51,534 nucleotides of DNA from Escherichia phage vB_EcoS_ULIM2. The translations under genes and the position numbers were made by a program. The stretch lies in sequence record OQ850291; one strand, given 5' to 3'. Positions within the stretch are counted from its first letter, which is position 1. Each line of letters starts with the position of its first letter. Under the pieces are notes generated by a model. The model did not search any database. It worked only from the letters and a program-made list of their open reading frames with translations, and was not told the origin of the DNA. Shown one piece after another: positions 1-42,163 of the stretch.

Positions 1-127
1 GATTGATGGCATTCGTCATGTTGTCGTTGATGCTCGCCCGGTTCAGGCGTCACTGGAACCAATCGCCTATCGTCCAGTATTGCGGAGGGTATCAGTAGGT
101 GGCTAATTATCAAATTCGTAGATTTCA
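1..127. repeat. Terminal direct repeat; 1-127 is identical to 51408-51534 (circular or terminally redundant genome)
   Basis: Exact 127-nt identity between the two window ends, read directly; the upstream extent is unknown because the window begins here. Confidence 0.9.
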
Positions 128-542
128 AGGTGAGATTGATGCGTGGATTAAGGCCGCAGAAAGCACGTTAGAACATGCTATTGAGATATTCGTAAGGGAT
201 GTTCACAACGCTCTTGTTAGTCGATCTCCTGTCGATACAGGTCGTTTCAAGGGCAACTGGCAGATAACCTTTAACGAGATACCTAACCACGCATTAAACC
301 GATACGATAAAACTGGCGGTGTCGTCAGAGGTGAGGAGCAAGCCAAAACTTATGGCATGTTCAGCCGTGGCGGCGCGATAACATCAGTTCACTTTTCAAA
401 CATGTTGATTTATGCAAACGCTCTTGAGTACGGTCATTCACAGCAAGCACCGAGCGGCGTTGTCGGTCTTGTGGCATTAAGGCTGAGATCATATATGGCT
501 GACGCAATCAAGCAGGCAAGGAGACAGCAAAATGCACTATGA
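99..542 (+). CDS. Putative head-tail joining/neck protein (147 aa)
   Basis: GTG start with GGAGGG 9 nt upstream, overlapping the stop of the preceding gene; lies between capsid and major tail genes. Function inferred from position only. Confidence 0.4.
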   Translation: MANYQIRRFQGEIDAWIKAAESTLEHAIEIFVRDVHNALVSRSPVDTGRFKGNWQITFNEIPNHALNRYDKTGGVVRGEEQAKTYGMFSRGGAITSVHFSNMLIYANALEYGHSQQAPSGVVGLVALRLRSYMADAIKQARRQQNAL

Positions 543-930
543 GTTATCAGCGGCGGCGCGATCCGCTTTTCTATCAAAGTACAGAGACTTTCCTCACTAC
601 ATGGAAAACAGAAATTTCACACCGCCTAAGGATGGCGGTATGTGGCTGAGGTTCAACTACATTGAAGGGGACACGCTTTATATATCCATTGACAGAAAGT
701 GTAAATCTTACATCGCAATCGTTCAGATCGGCGTAGTGTTCCCTCCAGGCTCCGGCGTTGACGAGGCAAGATTGAAAGCAAAAGAGATTGCTGATTTTTT
801 CAAAGATGGTAAAATGCTTAACGTTGGTTATATTTTCGAGGGTGCAATCGTGCATCAAATTGTTAAACATGAAAGCGGGTGGATGATTCCGGTTCGCTTT
901 ACAGTACGAGTAGACACAAAGGAGACTTAA
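532..930 (+). CDS. Putative tail terminator/neck protein (132 aa)
   Basis: ATG at 532 with AAGGAG-like RBS; overlaps the upstream stop; immediately precedes the major tail gene. Confidence 0.4.
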   Translation: MHYELSAAARSAFLSKYRDFPHYMENRNFTPPKDGGMWLRFNYIEGDTLYISIDRKCKSYIAIVQIGVVFPPGSGVDEARLKAKEIADFFKDGKMLNVGYIFEGAIVHQIVKHESGWMIPVRFTVRVDTKET

Positions 931-932
931 TT

Positions 933-1601
933 ATGCACTTACCAAATGGCGCACAAATTTTCGTGGAAACCTCTCGCGGAGAAGAGATTGAGGCGACCGC
1001 TATCACTAACGCAAAAAATCCTGTTGCTACAGTTGCATCTAAAGGTGACTTAGTAAAAGGCGATTACGTTATTGTAACTCAGTCAACTTGGGCTAAGATG
1101 GCTAGTCGAGTGCTAATTGTTACTGAAGCTCAGGAAACAAGCATCACCCTTGCTGGAATTGACACCTCTGATACTCTTGTTTTTCCGGCTGGCGGTACGA
1201 TGAGCTTTGCAAAAATTACTGGCTGGACTGAGATTCCTTGCGTTCAGGAGATTGGTCAGGACGGCGGAGAGCAGCAGTATTACACTTATCAGTGTTTGTC
1301 CGACGATAAAGAGCAGCAGATCCCAACGTTTAAATCTGCGGTATCGCTAACGTACACTTTCGCGCACGAATTTGATAACCCTATCTACCCGATTCTGCGC
1401 AAGCTGGATTCGTCTGGTCAGGTAACAGCGGTTCGAATGTACGTTCCGAAAGCGAGCGAAATGCGTATGTGGGCTGGTATCTTGTCGTTTAACGATATTC
1501 CATCCACGCAGGTTAACGAAATGGAAACGGTGGAACTCGCCGTATCCCTGAAAGGTGACTTTACTTTCATTTCCTCCACTCTGGCATCGCCTGGTGCTTA
1601 A
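933..1601 (+). CDS. Major tail (tube) protein (222 aa)
   Basis: ATG at 933 preceded by AGGAG; directly upstream of the chaperone frameshift pair and tape measure gene; followed by a strong terminator. The track ORF starts at 879 inside the previous gene. Confidence 0.55.
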   Translation: MHLPNGAQIFVETSRGEEIEATAITNAKNPVATVASKGDLVKGDYVIVTQSTWAKMASRVLIVTEAQETSITLAGIDTSDTLVFPAGGTMSFAKITGWTEIPCVQEIGQDGGEQQYYTYQCLSDDKEQQIPTFKSAVSLTYTFAHEFDNPIYPILRKLDSSGQVTAVRMYVPKASEMRMWAGILSFNDIPSTQVNEMETVELAVSLKGDFTFISSTLASPGA

Positions 1602-1613
1602 ATCCTATCCATA

Positions 1614-1640
1614 GGGGGCTTGCGCCCCCTTATTCATTTC
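1614..1640 (+). terminator. Rho-independent terminator after the major tail gene
   Basis: GGGGGC-ttgc-GCCCCC hairpin followed by a T-rich tract. Confidence 0.6.
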
Positions 1641-1677
1641 TGTAAAATCATCCTATCAACTTTATTCACTTAACTTT

Positions 1678-1692
1678 TAACAAAAAGTGCTA
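1678..1692 (-). promoter_or_regulatory. Conserved palindromic box (TAGCAC-N4-TGTTA) in leftward orientation
   Basis: Reads TAACAAAAAGTGCTA on the plus strand, 24 nt before the chaperone ATG; a TAGGAT -10 candidate lies 22 bp to the left (1650-1655). Confidence 0.4.
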
Positions 1693-1714
1693 TCAACCAA
1701 TCAGGAGAAACATC

Positions 1715-2032
1715 ATGGCTAAATTCAATTTCGTGTTGGGCCAGCTTCCAGACTTCAAACTTCCGGTGACGTTCACCATGCCAAACGGCGAGGATGCGAC
1801 TATTATTTTTACAGTACGCCACCTTTCCAGTAAAGAAGTGCAAGATATGTATGCGAAGCAGGGCGAAATGAATGATAGCGATTTCATCACTAAGATCGCG
1901 TCAGGCTGGAATCTGGAAGAAGAATTTAACGAAGAGAATGCGCGTAAACTGGTGCAGTATTATCCTTCCGCAGCATACAATCTGACGGCAACTTACATCA
2001 AGGCGCTCGCCGGACACCGCGCAAAAAACTAA
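1715..2032 (+). CDS. Tail assembly chaperone (lambda G-like, 105 aa)
   Basis: ATG at 1715 with AGGAG RBS; located between major tail and tape measure genes; ends at TAA just after a slippery heptamer. Confidence 0.65.
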   Translation: MAKFNFVLGQLPDFKLPVTFTMPNGEDATIIFTVRHLSSKEVQDMYAKQGEMNDSDFITKIASGWNLEEEFNEENARKLVQYYPSAAYNLTATYIKALAGHRAKN

Positions 2033-2349
2033 AAAGGGCGGTTTATCTGTTATATCAGAAACCGCCGACAGAAGAGCAATTGCGATCGGTTGGCCTCAGT
2101 CTTTCTGACTATGAAGACGAGGAGCCGGAAACGATAATCGGCGATGCTGAAATGGTGAAGGCGTGGAATGTTTTTACGTCAATGCTCACTCAGTGGAGAA
2201 GTTCAGGCGCTGGAGCCTATGGTCTTGACTATAATGTTTTGCCTATGTTGTTCAAAATCTATAAAATAGAAGATGAAGAACTGGCATTGCAGGACGTTAG
2301 AATCATGGAAGCGAAAGCGCTTGAAATGATTGCTAAGCAAAACAACTAA
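1715..2349 (+). CDS. Tail assembly chaperone frameshift product (lambda GT-like), -1 shift at 2023-2029
   Basis: After a -1 slip at A_AAA_AAC the reading frame runs without stop into ORF 2080..2349; this is the conserved G/GT arrangement of tailed phages. Confidence 0.55.
2023..2066 (+). other. Programmed -1 ribosomal frameshift signal (slippery heptamer plus hairpin)
   Basis: A_AAA_AAC at 2023-2029 directly before the TAA at 2030-2032; 7-nt spacer; 8-bp stem GGCGGTTT/AAACCGCC at 2037-2044 and 2059-2066 with a 14-nt loop. Confidence 0.6.
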
Positions 2350-2370
2350 GCCGCCGTTTGGCGGTTTTTT
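2350..2370 (+). terminator. Terminator/attenuator hairpin between the chaperone genes and the tape measure gene
   Basis: CCGCC-gttt-GGCGG followed by TTTTTT, directly after the GT stop. Confidence 0.5.
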
Positions 2371-2387
2371 CGTATATAGGGGGTTAT

Positions 2388-5261
2388 ATGGTTGATAAGG
2401 TAGCAGGTCTGTCGCTTGACGTTGATGTGTCAACAGTGCAGCGCGCAGTCAAGTCACTGAAAGAGTTTTCAAAGGCCAACGACCAGGCCGCTGATTCTAT
2501 GGGTTCTTTAATCAATGAGTCAGAGGTTGCAAAACAGAAGGCCAAAGAACACGCTGAGCAACTTAAGCGCCAGCGCAAAGAGTACGAGGCTGTAGAGAAG
2601 GCAATCGATCCTACAGTATCAAAAATGGAAAGGTTGAAGATTGCATCTCAGCAGCTTGATAAACTCTGGCAGCAGGGAGTCGTTCCAGATGAGACTTTTT
2701 TCCGTTTGGGTGAAATGCTGGATCTGCAAAACGCAAAACTTGCTCGCAGCCGGGCTATGCTTACGGAAGAAGGTCAGGCGGCATTGCAGGAAGCGAAAGC
2801 AAAAGAGCAGGCGGCAGCACGAAGCAAGGCGTTCATGGATGCCCTGAATGGTCAAGTTAACGCGATCGGCAAGACTCATGCTGAATTGATGGAACTGAAA
2901 GCGGCTGAGCTTGGTTTATCGAAAGAAGCAGCACCACTAATCGCAAAACTTAAAGATCAAGGCCGGGCTATGAATGCAGCAGGTATTAGCGCCGGGGAAT
3001 ACAGGCAAGCAATGCGAATGCTTCCTGCACAGATTACCGACGTCGTTACATCACTTGCGTCAGGCATGCCAGTTTGGATGGTTGCCATCCAGCAAGGCGG
3101 TCAAATCAAGGACTCGTTCGGCGGGATCGGTAATACGTTTAAAGTGTTGCTGAGTTATATTAATCCAGTCACAGCAGGGGTTGGCGTTCTCGTTGGCTCG
3201 TTAGGTCTTCTGGCGAAAGCTGGTTATGACTCTTACAAGTCAATAACTGATATTCAGAATGCGCTTATTGAGACTGGCGGTTATGCAGGTGTTACGGCTG
3301 AAGATCTTGATTCAGTGTCTAAAAAGATCGCGCAGACAAGCAACTCAACCATTGGGAGTATTCGCGAGATTGTAACGGAGTTGGCGAGTTCTGGTAAGTA
3401 CACCCGCGAGCAGATCCAGAACATCACTAAGGCGACGGCAGAGTGGTCGGCAGCAACTGGAAAATCAGCAAGCCAAATCATTGCTGAGTTCGACAAAATC
3501 GCAAGCGATCCGGTCAAAGGTCTGGAGAAGTTAAACGAACAATATAACTTCCTTGAAAAAGGTCAACTGACCTATATCGACACGTTAAGCCGGACGAAGG
3601 GTGAAACCGAAGCAGTATCTGAAGCAACGAAATTATTCGCCGACGTAATGGAAAAGCGAATGAAGTCGATCGCGGATAACGCCACACCCCTGGAAAAAAT
3701 GTGGAGCGATATTAAACAATGGGCTTCGGACGCGTGGGGATGGGTTGGAGATCATACACTTGGGGCACTAAACCTGATTATCGACGTTGTTCAGGGTACA
3801 GTGATTCAGGTTAAAATGATTCTTGCGAAGGGTGATGAGTACATCTCAAACTTTATCGCCTCAGCCATAAAGGCAACTCAGTCACTGCCTGGAATGAGTG
3901 ATTTCGGCGCTGATATACTGAAGGAGCAGGAGAATATTGTAAAAAGTTCTCGCGACAACTACGATCAGTTGGCTTCAGAGCTTGATGCTATTAACGCTCG
4001 CGTAGAAAAAGGCGAGATGGGATACGTTGAAGCGATGAAGCAGCGTCGCACTCTTGAAAAGCAGTATAGTGAGGAAACTAAGGAGGCAATAAGGAAAGAA
4101 GCGGAGGAGATCGAGAAGCGAAACCGAGAAAGAAATAAGCAGTCGAAAATTGTCCGCTCGCCGACAGAGCAATTCGACAAGGAGTTAATTTCACTCAAGG
4201 CTCAACTTAAGGTACTGCAGGAGCACAAGGAGATCGGGCAAAAACTTTCTGCCCAGAGAAAGGCGCTGTTTACTACTGAGGCTACGATCGCTGTTCTTCG
4301 CGAAGCTAGTTCTAAGCGTCAGTTGTCTGCGGAAGAAAAAGCGTTGCTGGCAAGTCAGGAGAGAGTTGTAGAACTTGCTAAACAGAAGGCTGAGATTGGC
4401 GATCAGATTGTCAAGCAACAGCAGTTGAACGCACTTACCGACAAGTCACTGAAGTTTGTCAATGAGATGACGGCGGCGACGGAACAGCTTAACGCTTCAC
4501 GCGGTCTTAGCACGCGAGAAATGGAGCGACAAGCGGAATTAGCTAAAATAACCACTGATTATATCAATGCTGGCGGCGGTGAAGGAGACGAAAAACTACA
4601 GAACATGATCAAGGCGCAGAATGATTACTACGCTGCGGAAGATGCCAAACGCGCTGACTGGTTGGCTGGCGCTGAAAGCGCATTCGCTGATTACGGCGAC
4701 TCTGCAATGGATATGTACGGAAACGTTAATGAGATCGCATCAAGTGCTCTAAACGGTATGACGGACATGATGGTTCAGTTCCTCACTACCGGGAAAGCAA
4801 ACTTTGCTGACTTTGCTAAAAATATCATCAGCATGATTATAAAGATGATTGCTCAAATGGTAATCTTCAATACGATCTCAGGAATGATGGGCGGTAAGAC
4901 GTGGAGCTTTGCTGGAGGGGCTTCGTCTGGTGCTTCTGCGGCATCACAGGCAACCCCTGCGCCTGCTGCTTCTGTTTTTAGATCTGTATCTTCCGGCGGG
5001 GTCGCTGTATCACTTGCTGCCGCAGCGGGTAGCGTGGCAACATCTGGATTCAACGCATCAAACTCGGCTCCAAAGGTGGTAAACCATTCAGGAGGTGGAA
5101 CGGTCGTTGACGTTAGCGGAATGGAGGTGAAAGTTGACAACGGTTCAGATCCGAGGGGGATTTCTCATGGTGTAGAAATGATGTTCAAAAAAATGATTCG
5201 TGAGTCTTGTTCGCAGGGCGGCGAGGTTTATAATTACATTCAGGAAAAAACAGGAGGTTAA
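2388..5261 (+). CDS. Tail tape measure protein (957 aa)
   Basis: Largest tail-region ORF; long coiled-coil-like E/K/Q-rich middle and Gly/Ala/Ser-rich C-terminal part; ATG at 2388 with AGGGGG RBS. Confidence 0.8.
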
Positions 5262-5263
5262 TA

Positions 5264-5617
5264 ATGGCGACACTTGACACTTTCGGTTGGTGTACGCAGG
5301 TTCAAGGGGGCGGTGGCTCCCTTACCACTACCAATAATGACCGCTCTATCCAGTTCGGTAACGGGTACATGCAGCTTGCGTCATCTGGATTTAACACCAC
5401 GCGGCGTGAGTATTCAGTCGTCTATGCCGGGGAAGATTTCATGGCTGTTTACGACTTCTGCAACTCTCACCGCATAAAGCCGTTCGCATGGACTCCACCG
5501 GACGGTAAGATCGGGGTATGGGTAGTCAAGCCTAACAGCTTGGGTGCTAAGCCAGTATCACGCGACGTGATGGAGATTAACGTCACGTTTATGGAGCAGT
5601 TTACATCTATGGAGTAG
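5264..5617 (+). CDS. Minor tail protein (lambda M-like, 117 aa)
   Basis: Directly follows the tape measure gene; contains FGNGY and WTPPDG motifs like lambda gpM (WTPP). Confidence 0.7.
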   Translation: MATLDTFGWCTQVQGGGGSLTTTNNDRSIQFGNGYMQLASSGFNTTRREYSVVYAGEDFMAVYDFCNSHRIKPFAWTPPDGKIGVWVVKPNSLGAKPVSRDVMEINVTFMEQFTSME

Positions 5618-5633
5618 CACATCATGACAAAAG

Positions 5634-5655
5634 CCCGCCTTGCGCGGGTTTTTTT
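5634..5655 (+). terminator. Terminator hairpin inside the tail gene cluster
   Basis: CCCGC-cttgc-GCGGG followed by 7 T; the same hairpin recurs at 7813-7835; followed by TGTAGAAT -10-like element. Confidence 0.55.
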
Positions 5656-5696
5656 GTAGCTGTAGAATGGTTGCAGGCAAACAAGAGGAAAAATCA

Positions 5697-6479
5697 ATGA
5701 GAGAAAACAAAAAACTGTATGATGAAGAAAGCGGAAAGAGCCTGTTTCATAACTGCCTGCAATCACTGTATCCTGGAGAGATAATCACTCTGATCGAAGT
5801 GGATGGCAGCAAGTTCGGCGCTCAAGTGTACCGATTCCACGGGGAGAATATCCAGTACACTCCAGAAGAAATAATGCAGGCCCAGCAAACAGGAACACTG
5901 CCGCCGAAAGAAATTACATTCCGTGGCGAGCAATATGGGGCGAGGCCGTTCGGTATATCCGGTATCTCGTTCGACAGTTCCGGCAAGGCGACTAAACCAC
6001 AGTTGACAGTGGCAAATATTGATAGCAGAGTGTCGGCAATGATTCGCGCATATAACGGATTGATGCAGGCGAAGGTGACAATCTGGATCACTCAAAAGGA
6101 CTTAATTCAACCTGACGGCTCAATCGCTGATGGAGCTTACCGTAAACTGGTATACTATATCGAACGCCCGAGCTATGTCGATAAGAGTGTCGCTCGTTTC
6201 GATCTCACGTCTCCGTATGATATGGATGGCATCATGATACCATCTCGACTAACGCAAAGCGTTTGCTATTTTGCACAAAGAGGATGGTATAAAACCGGGA
6301 AAGGGTGCGGATACAACGGGCAAAATGGTTACTTCGATAAAGACAATAATCCTGTAGAAGATCCCGCGCTCGACTTCTGCCCGGGAACGGTAACTGCCTG
6401 CCGCCTGCGGTTCGGTGCAAACAATGAATTGGATTTTGGCGGCTGTGCTGTCGCTTCACTACAGAGGAAAAATCAATGA
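5697..6479 (+). CDS. Minor tail protein (lambda L-like, 260 aa)
   Basis: Synteny M-L-K-I-J; Cys-rich C-terminal region; ATG at 5697 with AGAGGA RBS (track ORF starts at TTG 5640 inside the terminator). Confidence 0.6.
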   Translation: MRENKKLYDEESGKSLFHNCLQSLYPGEIITLIEVDGSKFGAQVYRFHGENIQYTPEEIMQAQQTGTLPPKEITFRGEQYGARPFGISGISFDSSGKATKPQLTVANIDSRVSAMIRAYNGLMQAKVTIWITQKDLIQPDGSIADGAYRKLVYYIERPSYVDKSVARFDLTSPYDMDGIMIPSRLTQSVCYFAQRGWYKTGKGCGYNGQNGYFDKDNNPVEDPALDFCPGTVTACRLRFGANNELDFGGCAVASLQRKNQ

Positions 6480-7210
6480 TTAGTGCAAAAATTAAACTTG
6501 AAATCATGACCCACGCTCAAGAAGAATACCCACGAGAATGCTGCGGGGTAGTTACACAAAAGGGCCGTGTGCAAAAATACCACAGAGTCGATAATGTGCA
6601 TCGTGATCCTGAAAATCATTTCATGATGGATGCTGTGCAGTACGCATGCATTGAGGACGATGCGGAATCAACCACGATAGCAATTGTTCATAGTCATACC
6701 GGTGACGGAGCTACAACTCTTCCAAGCGCTCACGATACGTGCATGTGTAATGAGATGGAAGTGACCTGGATTATTGTTAGCGTACCGGAAGGAGATATGC
6801 GATTTGTGAAGCCTGAGAAATTACCTCTGATTGGTCGTCCGTGGTCGTTAGGCTCATTTGACTGTTACGGTCTTGTTATGGCTTGGCACAAAGAGCACGG
6901 CGTAGAATTGCGCGATCGAAGGTTGAATTTTGAATGGTGGAAACCTGAGTACGGAATTAATCTCTATCAGGACTATTACAGGAAAGATGGATTTGTTGAA
7001 ATTCCAGATCAGAATAATCCTTCATTTGGTGATATGGTAATCATGCAAATAGGGCAAAATGTTCCGGTGTGGAACCATGCAGGGATTTACCTGGGTGATA
7101 ATCAGATCTTGCATCACGCATTCGGAAAGCTATCACGTCGTGATATTTATTCCGGCTGGTATCAGGATCACACAGTTTTAATTGTTCGCCATAAGGATCT
7201 TAAATTATGA
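6476..7210 (+). CDS. Tail assembly protein (lambda K-like; JAB/MPN metalloprotease plus NlpC/P60-like domain)
   Basis: HSHTGDGATTLPSAHD matches the JAMM HxH...S..D motif; Cys (DCYGLV) and His (NHAGIY) later in the protein; overlapping starts and stops with neighbours. Confidence 0.75.
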   Translation: MISAKIKLEIMTHAQEEYPRECCGVVTQKGRVQKYHRVDNVHRDPENHFMMDAVQYACIEDDAESTTIAIVHSHTGDGATTLPSAHDTCMCNEMEVTWIIVSVPEGDMRFVKPEKLPLIGRPWSLGSFDCYGLVMAWHKEHGVELRDRRLNFEWWKPEYGINLYQDYYRKDGFVEIPDQNNPSFGDMVIMQIGQNVPVWNHAGIYLGDNQILHHAFGKLSRRDIYSGWYQDHTVLIVRHKDLKL

Positions 7211-7806
7211 ATGATGTAAAAGTAATCAAGTTATCCGGTTCGCTTGGTAGGCGCTTCGGTGTCTTTCACCGCTTTGCTGTTGACTCTTACCCGGAAGCCA
7301 TTCGTGCACTATCCAGTCAGGTAGATGGATTTAAAGAATACATGCAAAGCGAGGTAGGATCGCGCAGCAAGTTTGCAATATTTGTGGATGGCGTTAACGT
7401 GGGCCACCATGAAGAGGAAAAATTCAAGTGCGCGAAAGAGATAAGAATCGTACCGATACCTACTGGCTCTAAGACAGGAGGTCTATTCCAGGTTGTATTG
7501 GGCGCGGCAATAATGGTTGCAGCATTCTATACTGGCGGCGCGTCTCTGGCTTTAATGGGTACAATGTCCTCGTCTCTGTTTATGATGGGCGGCGCTATGG
7601 TGCTGGGCGGCGTGGTGCAGATGATTTCACCGCAGCCGGGTGGCGCAAACTTTGAAGTTCAATCAAGCAAGAATAAACCTTCGTACGCGTTCGGCGGTGC
7701 TGTCAATACGACGGCGGCGGGATACCCTCTCCCGGTCCCGTATGGATATCGCGCCGGAGGTGGCGCAACTTTCTCAGCAGGTTCTTATGCCGAGGATATG
7801 AGTTAA
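7207..7806 (+). CDS. Tail assembly protein (lambda I-like, 199 aa)
   Basis: Position between K-like and J-like genes; Gly/Ala-rich hydrophobic C-terminal half. Confidence 0.55.
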   Translation: MNDVKVIKLSGSLGRRFGVFHRFAVDSYPEAIRALSSQVDGFKEYMQSEVGSRSKFAIFVDGVNVGHHEEEKFKCAKEIRIVPIPTGSKTGGLFQVVLGAAIMVAAFYTGGASLALMGTMSSSLFMMGGAMVLGGVVQMISPQPGGANFEVQSSKNKPSYAFGGAVNTTAAGYPLPVPYGYRAGGGATFSAGSYAEDMS

Positions 7807-7812
7807 AATTAA

Positions 7813-7835
7813 CCCGCCTTGCGCGGGTTTTTTTT
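7813..7835 (+). terminator. Terminator hairpin before the tail tip gene (same sequence as at 5634)
   Basis: CCCGC-cttgc-GCGGG followed by 8 T; followed by TATAAT at 7842-7847 and a TAGCAC half-box at 7863-7868. Confidence 0.55.
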
Positions 7836-7883
7836 CGCCTGTATAATGAGTCCACCGATAAATAGCACAAAAAGGTAAACATC

Positions 7884-10800
7884 ATGATTCAAAAAGTGAT
7901 AAGCGGATCTAAAGGTGGGTCACAGAAGCCTCATAACCCAGTTGAGATGGAAGACAATCTAATCTCAATCAACAAAATCAAGATCCTGTTGGCTGTATCT
8001 GATGGTGAAATTGACGAAACATTCAACCTAAAGCAGTTGATGTTTAACTCAGTTCCGGTGCAAAACGAGGATGGATCGTTCAACTTCGAAGGGGTAAAGG
8101 CTGAATTCAGGCCGGGAACTCAGACGCAGGAATACATCAAGGGAATGGAAGATAGCTCTAGTGAGGTAACTGTAAATCGTGAGGTTACTACCGATAACCC
8201 ATACACGATCTCAGTAACCAACAAAACGCTGTCGGCAATCCGTATCAAGATGTTCATGCCTCGCGGCGTACGAATTGAAAGTAACGGTGATAAAAATGGC
8301 GTAAGAGTTGAGTATGAGGTGCAACAAGCTGTTGATGGCGGCTCGTTTGAGACGGTGCTCACCGATGTAATCGAAGGCAAAACAATGTCAGGTTACGATC
8401 GAAGCAGACGTGTAAACCTACCTAACTTCAACAATCAGGTGATATTCAGAGTGGTTCGGAAAACTCCAGACTCTAACGACTCGAACGTTGTTGACGCGAT
8501 TCAGGTAAAGAGCTATGCCGAGGTGATTGATGCTAAATTCCGTTATCCACTGACTGGTCTTCTTTTTGTCGAGTTTGATTCGAAGATGTTCCCAAACCAG
8601 TTACCTACGATCTCAATTCGTAAGCGCTGGAAGATTGTAAACGTTCCGTCAAACTATGATCCAGAATCACGAACTTATAACGGAAATTGGGATGGAACTT
8701 TTAAGAAGGCATGGACGAATAATCCGGCTTGGGTGCTTTATGACCTGATGATTAATCAGCGTTATGGACTGGATCAGAAAGAGCTTGGTATCGCTGTAGA
8801 CAAATGGGCGCTCTATGAGGCGGCGCAATATTGCGACCAGATGGTCCCTGACGGTAAAGGCGGCACTGAGCCTCGCTACCTTTGCGACGTGATAATTCAG
8901 TCACAGACTGATGCGTACAAGGTGATTCGAGATATTTGCTCAATCTTCCGTGGAATGAGCTTTTGGAATGGTGAAAGCATTTCGGTAATCATCGACAGGC
9001 CGCGTGAACCTGCGTACATCTTCACTAATGACAACGTGGTTAATGGTGACTTCTCCTACACGTTCGCAAGCGAAAAGAGCATGTACACGACGTGTAATGT
9101 GATGTTTGATGATGAACAGAACATGTATCAGCAGGACGTTGAGCCAGTATTCGATCGTGAGGCTACTCTACGGTTTGGTAACAACGTAACGAGCATTACA
9201 GCGATCGGTTGCACACGTCGAAGCGAGGCAAACCGACGCGGGAGGTGGATTCTGAAAACTAACCTCCGCAGCACTACGGTAAACTTCGCTACCGGACTTG
9301 AGGGCATGATCCCGACAATCGGAGATGTTGTGGCAATAGCTGATAATTTCTGGTCAAGTAACTTAACGATGAACCTGTCAGGGCGTTTGCTCGAAGTATC
9401 CGGTAGTCAGATTTTCCTGCCGTTCCGCGTTGATGCTCGCGCAGGTGACTTTATCATCTTAAATAAGCCCGATGGCAAGCCTGTGAAGCGCACAATCTCA
9501 AGTGTTAGTGCGGATGGTAAGACTATAGAGGTTAACATCGGCTTTGGCTTTCCTGTGAAGCCTAACACGGTATTTGCAATCGACCGTACCGACATTGCGT
9601 TGCAGCAGTACGTCGTGACCAAAATCGACAAGGGTGATGATGATGAGGAGTTTACCTACAAGATTACGGCGGTTGAGTACGATCCTAACAAGTATGATGA
9701 GATTGATTACGGAGTTAACATCGACGACCGACCGACGAGCATTGTTGAACCAAATCAGATACCTAGACCGGAAAATGTGCAAGTGTCCTCAGAGTCGAGA
9801 ATCGTTCAGGGGATGAGCGTAGAAACGATGATTGTTAGCTGGGATAAAGTGCCGTACGCAGTTTTCTATGACGTCCAGTGGCGAAAGGATAACGGCAACT
9901 GGCAAAATGTACCGCAGACGGCAAATAAAGAGGTATACGTTGAAGGTATTTACGCTGGCAACTATCAGGTTCGCGTTCGCTCTGTCGCTGGTTCCGGTAC
10001 GACTTCAGGATGGTCAAATATCGTAGCTGCGACGCTGACGGGTAAACAAGGTGAGCCGGGCCGACCGATTAACCTTACAGCTACGGATGATGTTGTTTTT
10101 GGTATCCGTACAAAATGGGGGTTCTCTGATGGTTCTGGAGATACGGCCTATACAGAGTTGCAACAGTCACCGGATGGAACAGTGGATAACGCAAGTTTGC
10201 TTTCTTTGATTCCGTACCCGCAGCATGAGTATTATCACTCACCGATGCCTGGAGGGAATATCGTGTGGTATCGGGTAAGGACGGTTGATAGGATCGGTAA
10301 CGTGTCTCAGTGGACTGATTTTGTCAGAGGTATGGCATCAACAAACGTTGACGATATCATTGGAGAGATTTCTGTCGATATCGAAAACTCGCCGGGTTAC
10401 GAGTGGCTTGTTGATAACGCAACCGACAACGCGGCGCAGAACGCAGCGAACGCAGAGGCAGCAATTGAGAACGCGCTAGCCAATGACAAAGACGCGATCT
10501 ACATGAAGAAGGAGAACGGAAAGCGAAAAGCTGAGTACACGAAATCACTTAAACTTATTGCTGATGAGACGCAGGCGCGAGTGACGTCGATCGAGCAATT
10601 GAAGGCAAGTTTTGGAGATCAGATTAGCGCGAGCAATAGTGAATTGCGCGAGGTTATCGCAACCGAGACTGAGGCACTATCTCGTGAGATTGACCAGCTT
10701 AAGGCTCAGATTGGAGACGATATTCAGGCAAGTTTAACAGATATCCGCAAGGCTATAGCAAACGAGACTGAGGCTAGAACGCAAGCTGATCTTACTTTGA

Positions 10801-11336
10801 GCGCAAAACTTGGGGAAAACGAGGCGGCACTTGCTCAAAAACTTGATTCGTGGAGTAATGCGAGTTCTACCGGGGCGATGTACGGCGTTAAGCTCGGGCT
10901 GAAATACAACGGGCAGGAATACAGCGCAGGAATGGCTATGTCCCTGATTGGTTCAGGCGCGGCTGTTAAGGCTCAGATTCTTTTTGAGGCTTCACGATTT
11001 GCAATCATGACCGGGATGAATGGAAGGACACAATACCCGTTTGTTGTTGAGAATGGTCAGGTTATTTTAAGTAGCGCGATCATTAAAAACGGATTCATCA
11101 CCAACGCAATGATTGGCGAGTTTATCCAGTCGAACAACTTCCAGTCCGGGAAGGAAGGGTGGAGAATCACGAAGAGCGGCGGCTCAGAGTTTAATAACGT
11201 AGTGGTAAGGGGTGAACTTTACGCAGCAGAAGGTAGGTTTGCATTCAACGGAACGGGTAACACCGTTCAGATTAACAATAACGGAATCACGGTAAACTTA
11301 CCCGGCGGCGGGAAAGTTGTAGTGGGGAGGTGGTAA
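7884..11336 (+). CDS. Tail tip / host-specificity protein (lambda J-like, 1150 aa)
   Basis: Size and position after the I-like gene; fibronectin-III-like segment; last gene of the tail block before a terminator. Confidence 0.8.
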   Translation: MIQKVISGSKGGSQKPHNPVEMEDNLISINKIKILLAVSDGEIDETFNLKQLMFNSVPVQNEDGSFNFEGVKAEFRPGTQTQEYIKGMEDSSSEVTVNREVTTDNPYTISVTNKTLSAIRIKMFMPRGVRIESNGDKNGVRVEYEVQQAVDGGSFETVLTDVIEGKTMSGYDRSRRVNLPNFNNQVIFRVVRKTPDSNDSNVVDAIQVKSYAEVIDAKFRYPLTGLLFVEFDSKMFPNQLPTISIRKRWKIVNVPSNYDPESRTYNGNWDGTFKKAWTNNPAWVLYDLMINQRYGLDQKELGIAVDKWALYEAAQYCDQMVPDGKGGTEPRYLCDVIIQSQTDAYKVIRDICSIFRGMSFWNGESISVIIDRPREPAYIFTNDNVVNGDFSYTFASEKSMYTTCNVMFDDEQNMYQQDVEPVFDREATLRFGNNVTSITAIGCTRRSEANRRGRWILKTNLRSTTVNFATGLEGMIPTIGDVVAIADNFWSSNLTMNLSGRLLEVSGSQIFLPFRVDARAGDFIILNKPDGKPVKRTISSVSADGKTIEVNIGFGFPVKPNTVFAIDRTDIALQQYVVTKIDKGDDDEEFTYKITAVEYDPNKYDEIDYGVNIDDRPTSIVEPNQIPRPENVQVSSESRIVQGMSVETMIVSWDKVPYAVFYDVQWRKDNGNWQNVPQTANKEVYVEGIYAGNYQVRVRSVAGSGTTSGWSNIVAATLTGKQGEPGRPINLTATDDVVFGIRTKWGFSDGSGDTAYTELQQSPDGTVDNASLLSLIPYPQHEYYHSPMPGGNIVWYRVRTVDRIGNVSQWTDFVRGMASTNVDDIIGEISVDIENSPGYEWLVDNATDNAAQNAANAEAAIENALANDKDAIYMKKENGKRKAEYTKSLKLIADETQARVTSIEQLKASFGDQISASNSELREVIATETEALSREIDQLKAQIGDDIQASLTDIRKAIANETEARTQADLTLSAKLGENEAALAQKLDSWSNASSTGAMYGVKLGLKYNGQEYSAGMAMSLIGSGAAVKAQILFEASRFAIMTGMNGRTQYPFVVENGQVILSSAIIKNGFITNAMIGEFIQSNNFQSGKEGWRITKSGGSEFNNVVVRGELYAAEGRFAFNGTGNTVQINNNGITVNLPGGGKVVVGRW

Positions 11337-11343
11337 AACATAA

Positions 11344-11365
11344 GGGGCCAATCGGCCCCTTTTTT
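11344..11365. terminator. Terminator between convergent J-like gene and minus-strand gene
   Basis: GGGGCC-aatc-GGCCCC followed by TTTTTT. Confidence 0.6.
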
Positions 11366-12329
11366 AATACATGTTTGGAAGAACTATCAACGGAGATTGA
11401 ATTGCTATGTTCCTGTTAGGCATCACGAATTGCTGGCGAGAGTAGTTGCCAACAACCTTATTTTTAGCAACTCTTACCTTGTTTCCAGCCATTCTGATCC
11501 CGTTCATCCTTACGTGGTTGTATCCTCCATTATTTTCAATAAGCGCTCCACAGTATGATAACTGAATCAAGCTGTTTCCTATATCCTGATCCCCTGTACC
11601 GATATTAATTACGCGATTGTAAACGAATGGTTTATTTACTGTAGAAAAAGTAACCTGACCTTGCTTGTTGGTCATGGTTATACCGTTACCGCCGCGAGGG
11701 GGAGTGTTATTGAATATTACCAAATCCATAGTAACAGAAGCCGTCACATCATCCCTTCCACCGTAGGATGCATTCCTTACTGTGATGTTTGAACCGTCAA
11801 ATCCGACGCTTACATTAGGATCATCCCATCTTGCGAATGGTATACCTCCAACTGGCAATCTCATGTTACCATTAACAGTTATTCGATTTGAATATTGGCA
11901 CGTCATTAATTTTGCCACGTTTGATATGGCGGTGAAATCAGTTGAGTTTGCAACAAGCAGACCCTCATTCCTTGTGCCTACTGGTAATATCTCCATGACA
12001 GTACCAGCCCATTGCGGTAAACCTTCGTAGGCGCTTAGTGCATCATCACCTCTGATTATCACTCCGTTGTTACCATTCCTTGACACTGTAGTAACATAAA
12101 ACGGATCTGGTATGACAAGTGTCTGGTCGAACACCTCAATAACGTCAACAGGCTTTGTGAAGACAACAACAACCTGAGATCCCGGAGTCAATGGAGTATT
12201 TATAGTCAACGTCTTATTTGATTGCGCCCTCTGGTTGAAGTTCGCGCAGAATGAAGGGGCGCGAAGACCAGCCGTGATTTGCATCGCAGGACGCCCGTCA
12301 TTGTAATTTACATATATTCCCTCCCCCAT
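11364..12329 (-). CDS. Hypothetical protein, possibly tail-associated/host-range (321 aa)
   Basis: ATG at 12329 with AAGGAG RBS formed by the last codons of the upstream lipoprotein gene; Gly/Asn-rich repetitive sequence. Function not established. Confidence 0.45.
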   Translation of the reverse strand: MGEGIYVNYNDGRPAMQITAGLRAPSFCANFNQRAQSNKTLTINTPLTPGSQVVVVFTKPVDVIEVFDQTLVIPDPFYVTTVSRNGNNGVIIRGDDALSAYEGLPQWAGTVMEILPVGTRNEGLLVANSTDFTAISNVAKLMTCQYSNRITVNGNMRLPVGGIPFARWDDPNVSVGFDGSNITVRNASYGGRDDVTASVTMDLVIFNNTPPRGGNGITMTNKQGQVTFSTVNKPFVYNRVINIGTGDQDIGNSLIQLSYCGALIENNGGYNHVRMNGIRMAGNKVRVAKNKVVGNYSRQQFVMPNRNIAIQSPLIVLPNMY

Positions 12330-17840: not shown

Positions 17841-18774
17841 AGAGCAGGTCACTTGCTGAGAATAATTTGGCCTGCATTCCTGAACGGTATCCTCCAGGAT
17901 TCGGTATGATTATTTTTAATTGTCGGTCGTCTGCCATGTACAAGGTATCCTTGTCTGAAGGTTCGCACGCCACCCTTACTTCTCGATCACCTTTATACCT
18001 GTATGCAACCATTTCGAGGTTTTCAGGGGTGAAGCAGGCCCATACCTCTTGCTTTGTGTGAAATGCAATATGCTGAGCATCAATCCAGTTAAGGCATAAG
18101 TAGATCGCCTTTTCAGTTTTACCAGTCACGGCAACCGAACAACTCGTATATTTCTTCGCGTAAAATGACTCCCTCCCTTCCTCATCAATAATCAAAATAT
18201 TGCAAAACTCGTCATCAAGCCCATCCTCATGCACAAGTTGACACGGTATAGTGTGAAATACCGACTCACCGCCATCCTCGCTACGTTTTACGCCAACGTC
18301 GAACGATTCAGTGGGTAGAGACTCAAATATGCTTAGAGGCGTGTTTACGCGCTTCTCTGTGCGCTCCATAACTTTCATCACTGCTTCATGGTCTGCCATC
18401 ATAACATTGACGCCAGACACCGGAGTTCGGCGCGCTTTTTCATTGGCCTTGACAATGTATTCCTGCGGAACCTTTCCGAGAAATCTCCCCAGGATGTTTA
18501 TACATTCTCTGTACGGCATACCAGTTAATTTCATCAGCCAGCCAATACCAGAGTCGTTACCGCATGAGTTGCAGATCGCACCGCCGTCGCCCGGGGTGTT
18601 CAGGTTATCAGTCCAGCGAAAGCGGTCTTTACCGCCGCAGTTTGGGCAGGGTTGGTGCTTCTTATTAAAAACATCATTCGGCAATCCGCAGATTGATTGG
18701 AAAGCCTCGCGCCATAACCCCTTCATGTACGGTAAAACGTCCTCTTTCTGAAACATCATAAATTCTTCGTTCAC
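17839..18774 (-). CDS. Putative DNA primase-like protein with zinc ribbon (311 aa)
   Basis: CPNCGG-(16)-CNSCG Cys4 motif near the N-terminus; GTG start; adjacent to helicase. Catalytic motifs not confirmed. Confidence 0.4.
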   Translation of the reverse strand: MNEEFMMFQKEDVLPYMKGLWREAFQSICGLPNDVFNKKHQPCPNCGGKDRFRWTDNLNTPGDGGAICNSCGNDSGIGWLMKLTGMPYRECINILGRFLGKVPQEYIVKANEKARRTPVSGVNVMMADHEAVMKVMERTEKRVNTPLSIFESLPTESFDVGVKRSEDGGESVFHTIPCQLVHEDGLDDEFCNILIIDEEGRESFYAKKYTSCSVAVTGKTEKAIYLCLNWIDAQHIAFHTKQEVWACFTPENLEMVAYRYKGDREVRVACEPSDKDTLYMADDRQLKIIIPNPGGYRSGMQAKLFSASDLL

Positions 18775-18797
18775 TTCCAGATCTCCAAAATAAAAAA

Positions 18798-22594: not shown

Positions 22595-22842
22595 TGAGCG
22601 AAAAAATGGTTCCTGTTAAATTAACTGAGCAAGGTTTATGGCTTCTTTATCGCGCTACGTGCTGCGAAATTATGGAGCAAAACGGATTGACTCAGGATGT
22701 TATTGGTTGCGATCTGTGGGAGTTCACTATTTCTCTTGATATGTCTTTCGATGAGATAAAAAATGAATATATCGAGCGTTGGCCTTCAATTATCCAGAAA
22801 GACGTAGAGGAACTTAAAGCAGATACGATCGTACAGCACTAA
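22591..22842 (+). CDS. Hypothetical protein (83 aa)
   Basis: ATGA overlap with the methyltransferase stop; AAGGAAAG RBS. Confidence 0.5.
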   Translation: MMSEKMVPVKLTEQGLWLLYRATCCEIMEQNGLTQDVIGCDLWEFTISLDMSFDEIKNEYIERWPSIIQKDVEELKADTIVQH

Positions 22843-24893: not shown

Positions 24894-24995
24894 ATGAAGC
24901 TAGTTAAGTGCATCCGAAATGACTCCCAAACACTTCCATTCCGCGTAAATCAGATCTATAGTGTTGGTTATGATTTCGGTGGGGGATTATTTTAG
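24894..24995 (+). CDS. Small ORF (33 aa), not in the ORF track
   Basis: ATG 7 nt after GAGG in the conserved leader; followed by a terminator at 25093. Confidence 0.3.
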   Translation: MKLVKCIRNDSQTLPFRVNQIYSVGYDFGGGLF

Positions 24996-26558: not shown

Positions 26559-26601
26559 AATATACCCGATACGAGATCGGGTGTTTTAACAAAAAGTGCT
26601 A
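26559..26601 (-). promoter_or_regulatory. Box-type promoter (leftward)
   Basis: Minus strand TAGCAC-N4-TGTTA (26587-26601), 22 bp, TATATT (26559-26564) inside inverted repeat CCCGAT/ATCGGG. Confidence 0.5.
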
Positions 26602-26710
26602 TTTGTATCTTTTGACATGGAGAAGCAACTCCCCCTCCTGGTCGCAAAGATTATGCTCTCTGTCGCCGTTGGCCCTCATTGAAGTGAGCAGCAGACTCAA
26701 CAATCCTTGT

Positions 26711-27118
26711 TCAAATTCCTCTTTCGTAAGCTGGAGTCTTGCGCACAATTCGACGTTCCGATCTATCAATGTTTCTACGTTCGCCAAACAATTCTTCATC
26801 ACTCATTTCTCCAATGTGCATCATCTCCCACGTATACCGATTGTTGTAGCCATCAATACACATCAGCTTCATCATTACCGGGCGTTTGATCTTTCCCTTG
26901 CACCAGTAAAATCCATCCTTGCAATCAAGATACCCCTCAGTTACACAGCGTGAGCAAAACTCCTTAGATAGCGCACTTGTAAATTCACGGCGAGTCATCC
27001 CGGCGGCCTTAGCAAATCGCTCACTTTCCTTGTGGGCGTATATAAATTTCGCTATGTGCTGCCGAGTGTATTTGTCGTAACCTTCGCAGAACCGGAACAG
27101 ATCTAAAAGAAGAAGCAT
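26711..27118 (-). CDS. Hypothetical Cys-rich protein, possible zinc ribbon (135 aa)
   Basis: First ATG at 27118 just after the upstream stop; CSRC ... CKDGFYWC Cys pairs. Confidence 0.45.
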   Translation of the reverse strand: MLLLLDLFRFCEGYDKYTRQHIAKFIYAHKESERFAKAAGMTRREFTSALSKEFCSRCVTEGYLDCKDGFYWCKGKIKRPVMMKLMCIDGYNNRYTWEMMHIGEMSDEELFGERRNIDRSERRIVRKTPAYERGI

Positions 27119-27122
27119 ATTA

Positions 27123-28691
27123 TTAACCAATCAGTCGAGGATTGATGAAAACAATATCATCAATTCGGCAAGTGTAGTTCATCTCTTCGAGCGTTATAAG
27201 AAGGCTGTCGATTCTCTCAGCGACCTTCTGTTGCCCGTTGAACGGAGTAACGTTACGACACTTCGCTACAATGCTATGAATCGGTGCGCGGCCTTTGTTC
27301 TTCTTCGCGATCTCAGTGATAACATCAATCAGCTTACGAGATTCAGCCTCATCACCAGCATACCCGGCAGCGCTGGCAGACGACAGATAAGTCCTGGAAA
27401 GCTCATTGAAGATCATGATCGCTTCCTGCATTGTTTCAAGGTCAATCTCGCGATTTGCGCGGTTCGGTGATTCACCCTCCCAATTCTTGATCGTGTGAAG
27501 AACTGAAGCAATACGCAATGCGTGCTTATCGAACTTACCGAGATGACCGCGAAGCATTGAGTGAGAGTATTTCCCCCCAGCGGCGAAATCCGGTTCCATC
27601 GCCTGTCGTGCAAGGTTTAATTCACGCATAGCGTTACGGCTTACAGAGAGAACAACGTTATCCTCCTTCATGATGTTATGCACGAGTCTGTAATATTTGC
27701 TAACCAGTCCGCGATCGACTTCTTTATACAGTGCATCACCATTTTCATCACAAAGAATACGAGTACCTAAAAGCGGTTCCTCACGAACCAGAAGGAAGCG
27801 CTCAGATACACCGATACCGCGCTGGCCTGCGTCCATGATACCCTTGATTGTTTCATCCTGCGCAATGACGCAGATCGAACCGACCGGACACAGAGACAAG
27901 TTATTATCCTGGTTGGAACGCGCGACCTCCATATGGTTTTTATCCCAAGCCTTAAGGATAAGCTCACTGTTAGATTTCTTATCTGAGCCGCCATACGTAA
28001 GCCCGAGCAATGTATTGATTGCCGTTGCCTCGTCAGATATTACGGAAAAGTGACCTTGCACTGCCGCCACTTTCGCAAGACCTTCAGGTGTAGGATCTGA
28101 TACCGCGAAAACAATATCAGCCATCTTCTTGATCTTCTCTTCCAGTTTTTCTTTGTCCTCGTACAGAGCCGCCGTCGTGTTGCCTTTAGGATCGTTTTTT
28201 ATTTCCTTCTCGACCTGACGTAGCTGACTGGTTAAACGGATGCGTTCCTTTTTACGCTCTTCATTCAGTCGCTGAATCTCCGCACGCATAGGTGTAATCG
28301 CCGCTGAGTTAATCGCTGATTTACCTGTTGATGGTGGCTGACTGATTACCATGTAAAGCGCTGTCGGCTGTTCTTCTCCATGATATTGCACCCAAAACTT
28401 CCCGAGCATCGCGGCTGAGATGCAACCGATAAAATGAGCATACGCGGATGAAACCGGGAACTGGACTGATTCAGCTTTTGCTTTTGCATATTCGAATACC
28501 AGGTTATCGCCACCTAACGAAATCAGAGGGAACTTATCGTTTCCGCTGTTGATATCGATCGGATCTTGCCAAAAAGAAACTGAATCCCCATAACTGTTTT
28601 CACGAATTGCGATCGCCACCGGATTAACTCCAGTGCTATTTGCGATCTCAATAATCTGTTGGTAATTCAGTTTTGGCTTAATATTAAACAT
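27123..28691 (-). CDS. P-loop ATPase, possibly DUF3987-like replication-associated protein (522 aa)
   Basis: Walker A-like QPPSTGKSA and Walker B-like FSVISDEAT; ATG at 28691 with AAGGAG RBS. Family assignment is from memory. Confidence 0.45.
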   Translation of the reverse strand: MFNIKPKLNYQQIIEIANSTGVNPVAIAIRENSYGDSVSFWQDPIDINSGNDKFPLISLGGDNLVFEYAKAKAESVQFPVSSAYAHFIGCISAAMLGKFWVQYHGEEQPTALYMVISQPPSTGKSAINSAAITPMRAEIQRLNEERKKERIRLTSQLRQVEKEIKNDPKGNTTAALYEDKEKLEEKIKKMADIVFAVSDPTPEGLAKVAAVQGHFSVISDEATAINTLLGLTYGGSDKKSNSELILKAWDKNHMEVARSNQDNNLSLCPVGSICVIAQDETIKGIMDAGQRGIGVSERFLLVREEPLLGTRILCDENGDALYKEVDRGLVSKYYRLVHNIMKEDNVVLSVSRNAMRELNLARQAMEPDFAAGGKYSHSMLRGHLGKFDKHALRIASVLHTIKNWEGESPNRANREIDLETMQEAIMIFNELSRTYLSSASAAGYAGDEAESRKLIDVITEIAKKNKGRAPIHSIVAKCRNVTPFNGQQKVAERIDSLLITLEEMNYTCRIDDIVFINPRLIG

Positions 28692-28720
28692 CACAATAAA
28701 CTCCTTAGTTGACGGTGTGA

Positions 28721-28763
28721 ATGATACACCGCCAATGGTACACGCGTTTTGCAAAAAGTGCTA
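28721..28763 (-). promoter_or_regulatory. Box-type promoter (leftward) for the ATPase gene
   Basis: Minus strand TAGCAC-N3-TTGCAA (28749-28763), 22 bp, TATCAT (28721-28726). Confidence 0.45.
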
Positions 28764-28767
28764 TTGG

Positions 28768-29184
28768 TTATAAGTATTTGGCCTCAAAGGTTGTGCCGTC
28801 AGCAATACTAAAACCCACCTCTTCGCGGAATAAGGTCCAGCGGCAACCATCCTCATCAAAGATGTAACCAGCCACTCCACCGAGAGCGCGACCGCTTTCC
28901 ACCTGGTAGCGTTTGCCAACTTTGAATGATTTTTTCATTGGGTTGCGATGGTCAAGCCCGGTGCATTTTAGTGTCTTCGTTTTCAGTTCTACGAATGTTG
29001 CATTAAGCGGATTACCCAATGAGTCTTCACCATGTGCGGTCATTTTATCAAGCACATGCCAATGCTTAGGCGCGAACTGAACTGAGATATTACCCCCATC
29101 GTCTATGCGTCCTTTATAAAGTTTGTTTGCTTCAAAGAATAATTTCATGGTGGATGAGGTGCATTTGAGTTTGATACTTTTCAT
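28768..29184 (-). CDS. Hypothetical protein (138 aa)
   Basis: ATG at 29184 preceded by the conserved AACCAATCAGGAGA leader. Confidence 0.5.
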   Translation of the reverse strand: MKSIKLKCTSSTMKLFFEANKLYKGRIDDGGNISVQFAPKHWHVLDKMTAHGEDSLGNPLNATFVELKTKTLKCTGLDHRNPMKKSFKVGKRYQVESGRALGGVAGYIFDEDGCRWTLFREEVGFSIADGTTFEAKYL

Positions 29185-29263
29185 TGAATATCTCCTGATT
29201 GGTTATCTTGAACAAGGCCACTTTAACAAATGACCTTGCGGCAATATTAACAAATCGTGCTAT

Positions 29264-29476: not shown

Positions 29477-29480
29477 TAAA

Positions 29481-29705: not shown

Positions 29706-29738
29706 TTTTAATTCCTTTATTTCGTTTGGTGTAGGAGT

Positions 29739-29782
29739 AATATACCTTACTCCATATTTATTGTCTTTAGCAATTAGTGCTA
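29739..29782 (-). promoter_or_regulatory. Box-type promoter (leftward)
   Basis: Minus strand TAGCAC-N3-TTGCTA (29768-29782), then TATATT (29739-29744) within inverted repeat GGAGTA/TACTCC. Confidence 0.45.
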
Positions 29783-42088: not shown

Positions 42089-42109
42089 ACCCGCTTCGGC
42101 GGGTTTTTT
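42089..42109 (+). terminator. Rho-independent terminator before the packaging module
   Basis: CCCGC-ttcg-GCGGG followed by 7 T. Confidence 0.6.
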
Positions 42110-42122
42110 TATGTCTGCAATA

Positions 42123-42146
42123 TGGTAAAATAGCACTAAATGTTAA
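42123..42146 (+). promoter_or_regulatory. Late promoter candidate with the palindromic box downstream of the -10
   Basis: TGgTAAAAT at 42123-42131 followed immediately by TAGCAC-N4-TGTTA (42131-42146); TerS ATG at 42164. Confidence 0.4.
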
Positions 42147-42163
42147 ACAAAGAGGATGGATTT

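Follow-up and report, generated by a model that had tools for sequence, protein, structure and literature searches.

Putative terminator/promoter cassettes at three tail-gene junctions of T1-like phages (family Drexlerviridae)

The genome of coliphage T1 (records NC_005833 / AY216660) is annotated with about 25 rho-independent terminators, and its late region has been described as a set of "transcriptons" that are bounded by terminators and contain RpoD promoters (2004 description as summarised in PMC11447400). Four of these terminators have counterparts in Escherichia phage vB_EcoS_ULIM2 (sequence record OQ850291), whose entire 51,534-nucleotide (nt) sequence is the window analyzed here. Three of the hairpins (1613, 5634, and 7813) lie at the junctions of the V-like and G-like, M-like and L-like, and I-like and J-like tail genes (V-G, M-L, and I-J, respectively cassettes 0, 1, and 2), and one (42090) precedes the small terminase gene. 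The T1 terminators stand at the same gene junctions with identical hairpin sequences, the records of SA30RD and SA32RD carry the same rho-independent terminator annotation, and in phage TLS the equivalents of the four hairpins are the terminators T42, T46, T49, and T28 (PMC11447400). The comparative sequence evidence described below suggests that a sigma70-type promoter overlaps the terminator at each of the three tail-gene junctions, with its -35-like hexamer in the terminator loop.

The closest described kind of element is the promoter-early stem-loop (PeSL) of T4-like phages, a composite of a sigma70 promoter and a terminating stem-loop (PMC2839356, PMC4122927) whose stem-loop is usually found between the two promoter boxes (-35 and -10) or overlapping the second of them (PMC2839356). 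The elements of the T1-like phages resemble PeSLs in combining promoter-like and terminating parts within one short intergenic motif. However, PeSLs measure about 100 bp, occur in large numbers beside the early orphan genes of hyperplastic regions, and mediate recombination. The T1-like cassettes are short, number three to four, and occupy fixed positions within a conserved siphovirus operon, that of the late tail genes, where nothing points to mobility. In place of the high copy number and gene shuffling of PeSLs, we found two identical and one or two related copies at fixed junctions in about 80 genomes, with isolated rearrangements only (L015, L023/L024). Within this phage group, the T1 transcripton already expresses the concept of a terminator-promoter cassette. 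The tail cluster V-G-T-H-M-L-K-I-J of lambda and N15 has the same order of genes and encodes homologous proteins. The late genes of lambda are transcribed as one Q-antiterminated transcript from pR', with no internal terminator/promoter units; unlike lambda, T1-like phages punctuate the tail operon.

Hairpins and promoter-like elements at the V-G, M-L, and I-J junctions

The initial annotation of this DNA had noticed one exact hairpin plus T-run after an M-like and an I-like gene, each followed within 10 nt by a -10-like element. The repeat is exact at 5634-5655 and 7813-7835, and Pfam supports both gene labels (PF05939 at 5264-5617, PF06805 at 7207-7806). The 15-mer CCCGCCTTGCGCGGG occurs on the + strand at 5634-5648 and 7813-7827 and nowhere else with up to two mismatches (mean of 0.05 matches in shuffled sequences, with two matches reached in 1 of 100 shuffles). 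It is followed by T7 (5649-5655) at M-L and by T8 (7828-7835) at I-J, after which come TGTAGAAT at 5661-5668, 5 nt past T7, and TGTATAAT at 7840-7847, 4 nt past T8. Without gaps, the two sites share 22 identical bases, then four differing ones, and then CTGTA-n-AATG, i.e., 31/36 positions overall. This likeness spans 36 nt in one register, which takes in CTGTAGAATG / CTGTATAATG, and is limited to the functional parts, as the flanks of the two cassettes are unrelated. A repeat finder returned the same 36 nt as a single family with members at 5634-5669 and 7813-7848 (86% identical) and at 42089-42124 (69%).

The hairpins have the structure of intrinsic terminators, in which a G+C stem of 5-7 bp closes a loop of 4-5 nt and leads into T7 or T8, and all four have folding energies of -11.5 to -14.5 kcal/mol and z about -3.2. 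The M-L and I-J hairpins are intergenic and on the coding strand, beginning 17 nt past the M stop codon and 7 nt past the I stop codon; in cassette 1, A/G-U pairs from 5629 lengthen the stem. A third cassette in the same register follows the tail-tube gene at 1613-1648, and its hairpin has the same loop, CTTGC(G). Its T-rich tail (1631-1640) is interrupted, which is why a strict scan for a hairpin with a loop TTG, T5, and a -10 hexamer recovered only the M-L and I-J sites and missed 1613. A search of positions 1-12000 against Rfam gave no RNA family, only a single chance-level hit to an unrelated snoRNA model.

In cassettes 0, 1, and 2, the hexamer TTGCGC spans the loop and the descending stem and ends exactly 17 nt before a -10-like hexamer. 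The pattern TTGCGC-N17-TAnAAT has three matches in the genome against 0.13 expected, and the three -10 hexamers (TAAAAT, TAGAAT, and TATAAT) all have A as their second and T as their sixth base. When 102,996 positions on both strands were scored with a rough sigma70 matrix, for which the author supplied textbook base frequencies, the promoter-like elements ranked 28 (cassette 0), 22 (cassette 1), and 9 (cassette 2), with predicted starts at about 1655, 5675, and 7854; a Shine-Dalgarno sequence, AGAGGA (5684-5689), follows the predicted start of cassette 1.

Conservation was assessed in the neighborhood of the K-like gene in about 80 Drexlerviridae loci, whose K proteins have identities between 61% and 99% (individual loci are numbered with the prefix L); the V-G, M-L, and I-J intergenic regions were extracted from these loci. 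Nearly all of these regions hold a G+C hairpin, a T-run, and a TAnAAT hexamer. The stems vary by lineage with their complementarity kept (CCCGC, CCCCGC, GCCGC, GGCCAGC, GCGCCC, GGGGC, GGGGAAGC, and others) and the loops almost always contain TTG, i.e., at all three sites it is the structure and not the sequence of the terminator that has been conserved. An RNAalifold alignment of 22 hairpins from the three sites contained three consensus pairs with double changes in 8-10 of the 22 sequences at each pair; this joint alignment was poor, as the stems shift relative to the loop anchor, and inspection site by site was used instead. Together with annotation, folding, and position, this covariation gives good support to the terminator function that the initial annotation had supposed.

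The strongest argument for a promoter comes from the spacing. Three landmarks (loop TTG, T-run of five or more, and -10 hexamer) were each located independently in the distinct intergenic sequences, and the spacer between TTGnnn and the -10 was 17 nt in 30/32 M-L and 32/34 I-J sequences and in 23/34 V-G sequences, with 16 nt in the remaining 11; these counts leave out about one third of the distinct sequences per site, which were one landmark short under the strict criteria. A best-promoter scan, which itself favors 17 nt, placed 136/153 at that distance. The lengths of the stem remainder, T-run, and linker differ (3/8/6, 4/6/7, 3/6/8, 2/6/9, 3/9/5, 2/5/10, 4/9/4, and 6/8/3), and their sum is constant. 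Such compensation between T-run and linker suggests that the hexamer and TTG form one functional pair, the mark of a sigma70 promoter whose -35 lies in the terminator loop. The name "terminator-promoter cassette" given in the initial annotation thus appears apt for a -10-like element that is kept family-wide at a fixed 17 nt from the loop TTG.

In the late operon of this T1-like phage, each site is probably a compact, composite terminator/promoter unit that spans about 36-40 bp; that termination and initiation occur, and with what efficiency, we infer, and promoter function has its support in comparative sequence evidence only. The intrinsic terminator would halt part of the transcription coming from the upstream block (tail tube; chaperone, tape measure, and M; or L, K, and I). 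An overlapping host sigma70-type promoter would use TTGCGC in the loop and descending stem as its -35, the remaining stem, T-tract, and short linker as its 17-bp spacer, and TAAAAT, TAGAAT, or TATAAT as its -10, and would re-initiate transcription about 7 nt past the hexamer for the next block (G..M; L-K-I; or J). The late operon would in this way be divided into separately dosed units, [..V], [G..M], [L-K-I], and [J..], and a role of the cassettes in setting the stoichiometry of the tail proteins is plausible.

Several observations weigh against the composite unit. The -35 hexamer agrees with TTGACA only in TTG (3/6, at a spacing of 17 bp), and a consensus promoter scan omits the cassette sites because of these few matches; the TG ahead of the -10 is one base nearer than in a canonical extended -10. 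The conservation profile of 76 distinct cassettes (TTG, a variable linker, and T-A-n-a-A-T) arises partly by construction, as fragments were selected for hexamers with A2/T6 and for TT at the -35 position. Exceptions occur among the relatives: the L059-L088 group has an I-J loop without TTG, and L019 and L045 have no -10 at M-L. In a virulent phage, plain sigma70 promoters ahead of tail genes should act early, and late timing fits poorly unless they are weak, repressed, or dosage dependent. No promoter is annotated behind the hairpins in T1, TLS, or the other records inspected, and the 2024 re-annotation of TLS, with stringent criteria, accepted three sigma70 promoters genome-wide, none of them at the equivalent sites (PMC11447400). 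In the literature searched, we found no 3' or 5' transcript-end data for T1-like phages, which are also unmentioned in the PhageExpressionAtlas paper.

Alternative explanations for the repeated hairpin

On one alternative, the three sites are terminators or attenuators only, genes downstream are expressed by read-through, and TAnAAT is either AT-rich sequence behind a T-run or conserved for a role in the RNA, for instance in a leader element or as a site for RNase E. This would match the existing records, which annotate only terminators, and the weak -35; five other late-operon terminators clearly work without a promoter, and late timing is simpler without constitutive promoters. We nevertheless consider it unlikely, because T-A-n-a-A-T is kept 17 nt from the loop TTG despite the differing lengths of T-run and linker, because the hexamer stays intact in L016 where the I-J hairpin has been lost, and because of a control with the hairpin itself. 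The exact 21-mer (hairpin plus T6) was found in 103 stretches of IMG/VR that represent 76 distinct contexts. A -10-like hexamer at 17 nt accompanies it in 23 of these, almost all of them M-L or I-J sites of Drexlerviridae, and the other 53, in unrelated phages, have the 21-mer without a -10. The hexamer is therefore no automatic by-product of the hairpin, which, judged by these contexts, is a generic, recurrent solution for a terminator.

The same control bears on the origin of the two identical hairpins in the composite units, whose reuse had initially been taken as a sign of either duplication or recognition by one factor. As the 21-mer recurs in 53 unrelated contexts, identity alone shows neither. 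A recently duplicated or gene-converted mobile cassette, similar to PeSLs and with repeats that act as recombination points for module shuffling, would account for the 22 identical bases (31/36 overall), for the M-L and I-J hairpins being equal in three genera (Tunavirus, L035, and L040), and for the TLS group, in which the same hairpin is located before the small terminase gene instead; the PeSL stem-loop, too, lies between or overlaps the promoter boxes (PMC2839356), and two rearrangements described below (L015 and L023/L024) begin or lie at the M-L and I-J sites. Yet such a cassette is very unlikely to explain just two to four copies at fixed syntenic positions in about 80 genomes, with likeness confined to functional parts amid unrelated flanks, and in most lineages the M-L and I-J hairpins differ, in some so far as to be unrelated. 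Recombination between M-L and I-J would also cost the phage its presumably essential L, K, and I tail genes. In L029, the two hairpins are one compensatory base pair apart, so their identity elsewhere could have arisen by convergence under a dual constraint, without conversion, in keeping with the independent appearance of the 21-mer in many unrelated phages. Duplication, as the initial annotation proposed it, is thus not demonstrable, and the identity of the hairpins most likely reflects a common and highly constrained type (a G+C stem and a loop with TTG) that was inherited or converged upon within the family.

A single dedicated factor of phage or host origin (for example, an antiterminator or a protein that binds RNA or DNA) that reads the hairpin and co-regulates L-K-I and J, the other suggestion of the initial annotation, could draw on the identical stem-loop at two sites and on the loop shared with the hairpin at 1613, but is extremely improbable, as the stems vary freely among relatives with only TTG and the -10 kept, both of which host RNA polymerase with sigma70 accounts for, the loop of the pre-terminase hairpin varies within the UNCG family, the same hairpin is common in unrelated phages, and Rfam gave no family match in the region. 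Shared ancestry together with the dual constraint of a stable stem and a TTG loop is enough to explain the identity, and a dedicated factor is unneeded.

Local deviations were seen among the loci compared. In L016 (IMGVR_UViG_2974611450_000001, about 7335-7415), the I-J hairpin is disrupted (CCCGCTCCGCATTCA), and the T-run, TGTATAAT, and the remaining intergenic region are unchanged. In L015 (a Tunavirus, IMGVR_UViG_2974674285_000001, about 5300-5340), about 167 nt are missing directly after the M-L hairpin, so that the T-run and promoter-like element are gone and the L gene lacks its 5' end; this deletion may be real or reflect an assembly error. Finally, L023 (5471-6041) and L024 (5455-6025) have an insertion of about 560 nt between the I-like and J-like genes; there, I is followed by a different hairpin, and J is directly preceded by a copy of the direct repeat (AGCAATTAGTGCTAT).

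Genomic setting, other terminators, and direct repeats

The window is a complete T1-like genome (Tunavirus) with about 93% identity to T1, which is colinear with the whole stretch. Positions 1-127 are identical to 51408-51534, i.e., the genome is circularly permuted, with a length of about 51,407 bp plus an assembly overlap. The 3-kb region around the hairpins matches coliphage T1, as well as many Tunavirus genomes, at 92-93% identity; the L gene region has 79-94% DNA identity to T1, and a 100-nt stretch of the I-J intergenic region is 100% identical. All genes between 1 and 11336 lie on the + strand, and Pfam supports a lambda/N15-type order of the tail genes (Table 1).

Table 1. Coordinates of cassettes, tail genes, terminators, and repeat copies in the window
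Feature	Position	Strand	Remarks
Cassette 0 hairpin, AGGGGGCTTGCGCCCCCT	1613..1630	+	-14.5 kcal/mol; orthologue of T1 terminator 18770-18796
Cassette 0 promoter-like element, TTGCGC-N17-TAAAAT	1620..1648	+	-35-like 1620-1625 (loop and 3' stem), -10 1643-1648
Cassette 1 terminator	5629..5655	+	stem CCCGC/GCGGG (5634-5648), loop CTTGC, T7; -13.7 kcal/mol; T1 terminator 22793-22816
Cassette 1 promoter-like element	5640..5668	+	TTGCGC (5640-5645), 17 nt, TAGAAT (5663-5668)
Cassette 2 terminator	7811..7835	+	AA-CCCGC-CTTGC-GCGGG-TT (core 7813-7827) and T8; -11.5 kcal/mol; T1 terminator 24972-24994
Cassette 2 promoter-like element	7819..7847	+	TTGCGC (7819-7824), 17 nt, TATAAT (7842-7847)
Tail tube (major tail, V-like) gene	879..1601	+	PF08813, E = 1e-70; upstream of cassette 0
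Tail assembly chaperone (G-like) gene	1715..2032	+	PF08748; first gene past cassette 0
Tape measure gene	2358-5261	+	Pfam
Minor tail protein, M-like gene	5264..5617	+	PF05939
Minor tail protein, L-like gene	5697..6479	+	PF05100; ATG at 5697, start checked
K-like tail tip gene	6476..7210	+	JAB and NlpC/P60 domains
Tail assembly protein, I-like gene	7207..7806	+	PF06805 (lambda tail I)
J-like tail tip / central fibre gene	7884..11336	+	PF24801, PF13550, PF09327
Pre-terminase hairpin, CCCGCTTCGGCGGG	42090..42110	+	CCCGC-TTCG-GCGGG (42090-42103) and T7; -11.8 kcal/mol; T1 terminator 8322-8344
Weak -10-like CAATAT (42118-42123) and direct-repeat copy (42127-42147)	42118..42147	+	CAATAT in cassette register; small terminase gene from 42164
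Promoter-less late-operon terminator	2348-2367
Promoter-less late-operon terminator	44312-44333
Promoter-less late-operon terminator	48485-48510
Promoter-less late-operon terminator	50355-50377
Promoter-less late-operon terminator	50695-50713
Inverted direct-repeat copy, ATAGCACnnnTTGnTAAA	1675..1693	-	between cassette 0 and chaperone gene
Degenerate direct-repeat copy, AAATAGCACAAAAAGGTAAAC	7860..7880	+	in predicted leader, 4 nt before J start; DR8 of TLS

The near-copy of the hairpin that had been noted before the packaging module is present with its T7 just before the small terminase gene, starting at 42090 rather than at 42089. Its stem is the same as in cassettes 1 and 2, but it has a UNCG tetraloop, with TTCG, TACG, TCCG, or CTCG as the loop in relatives. 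As a cassette promoter it was rejected for its poor score (rank 4182), and a plain terminator with a UNCG loop, behind which a copy of the direct repeat lies, is the better description.

A second class of late-operon terminators, represented by the five promoter-less ones in Table 1, abuts the start signals (Shine-Dalgarno sequence and start codon) of the following gene and leaves no room for a promoter, from which it follows that the longer gaps at the three cassette sites are specific to them. Terminators that abut ribosome-binding sites, e.g., the one after the major capsid gene, are presumably pure attenuators. A proposed correlation between TTG-less loops and a missing -10 was dropped, since the T-rich loops of promoter-less terminators carry TTG by chance.

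A 21-nt direct repeat of the T1-like phages (aaATAGCACnnnTTGnTAAAA) is absent from the hairpin cassettes, with separate copies nearby at 7860-7880, 42127-42147, and, inverted, 1675-1693. It has been reported for TLS, T1, and Rtp with no function assigned (PMC11447400). In the window, ATAGCACnnnTTGnTAAA has 33 matches against 5.7 expected, corresponding to about 28 copies, on the + strand at, e.g., 17759, 19301, 21810, 22833, 24821, 34447, 35186, 36178, 37465, 38822, and 40319, and on the - strand within 26585-33115. A canonical extended -10 (TGnTAnnnT) lies exactly 22 nt after TTGnTA in 19/28 copies and 23 nt after it in three more; in T1, the corresponding counts are 15/23 and 2/23. The interval between TTGnTA and the -10 usually holds a G+C inverted repeat that adjoins the -10. 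From its sequence context, the direct repeat looks like the upstream half of a class of phage promoters (repeat, hairpin, and -10) before early and middle genes.

Two further features were recorded. A promoter-like TTAACG-16-TATTAT (49310-49364 region) overlaps an inverted direct-repeat copy, and directly downstream of it come a 10-bp hairpin and the gene for the major capsid protein (49389); this hairpin would sit at the 5' end of the capsid mRNA and not terminate it. The leader ACCAATCAG(A)GGA(A)... precedes several start codons (1696-1717, 35389-35410, 37529-37550, and 38886-38907) as a conserved ribosome-binding context and is kept in the V-G region of relatives.

Implications for late transcription in T1-like phages

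The hairpins themselves matter little, being annotated T1 terminators, and the idea of a cassette has already been proposed in general form for T1. What the comparison adds is a third cassette and a putative promoter, conserved family-wide, with its -35 in the terminator loop; this is a modest addition, and neither the -35-in-loop geometry nor the conserved 17-nt spacing was found described in the accessible literature. Sequence-level support for putative internal promoters at three tail-operon junctions of the Drexlerviridae is of modest value for phage annotation: pattern-based annotation misses the cassette promoters, and the latest re-annotation of TLS did not accept them.

A more far-reaching proposal, which we regard as quite unlikely, is that the overlap of terminator and promoter is functional rather than mere compaction. 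As the terminator itself supplies the -35 and the spacer, RNA polymerase would then be released exactly on a promoter, which would favor re-initiation by polymerase retained on the DNA, and promoter-bound polymerase could form a roadblock and so sharpen termination. Combined with the repeat-hairpin-(-10) promoters found elsewhere in the genome, the cassettes would make modules with a hairpin inside a promoter the general transcription grammar of the Drexlerviridae. If true, this would explain a long late operon for which neither an antiterminator nor a late sigma factor has been identified so far.

If confirmed, the composite units proposed here would provide compact, portable terminator-plus-promoter parts and a natural system in which to study the coupling of termination and re-initiation. 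For the T1-like phages themselves, the comparative result backs the older "transcripton" picture of T1 late transcription.

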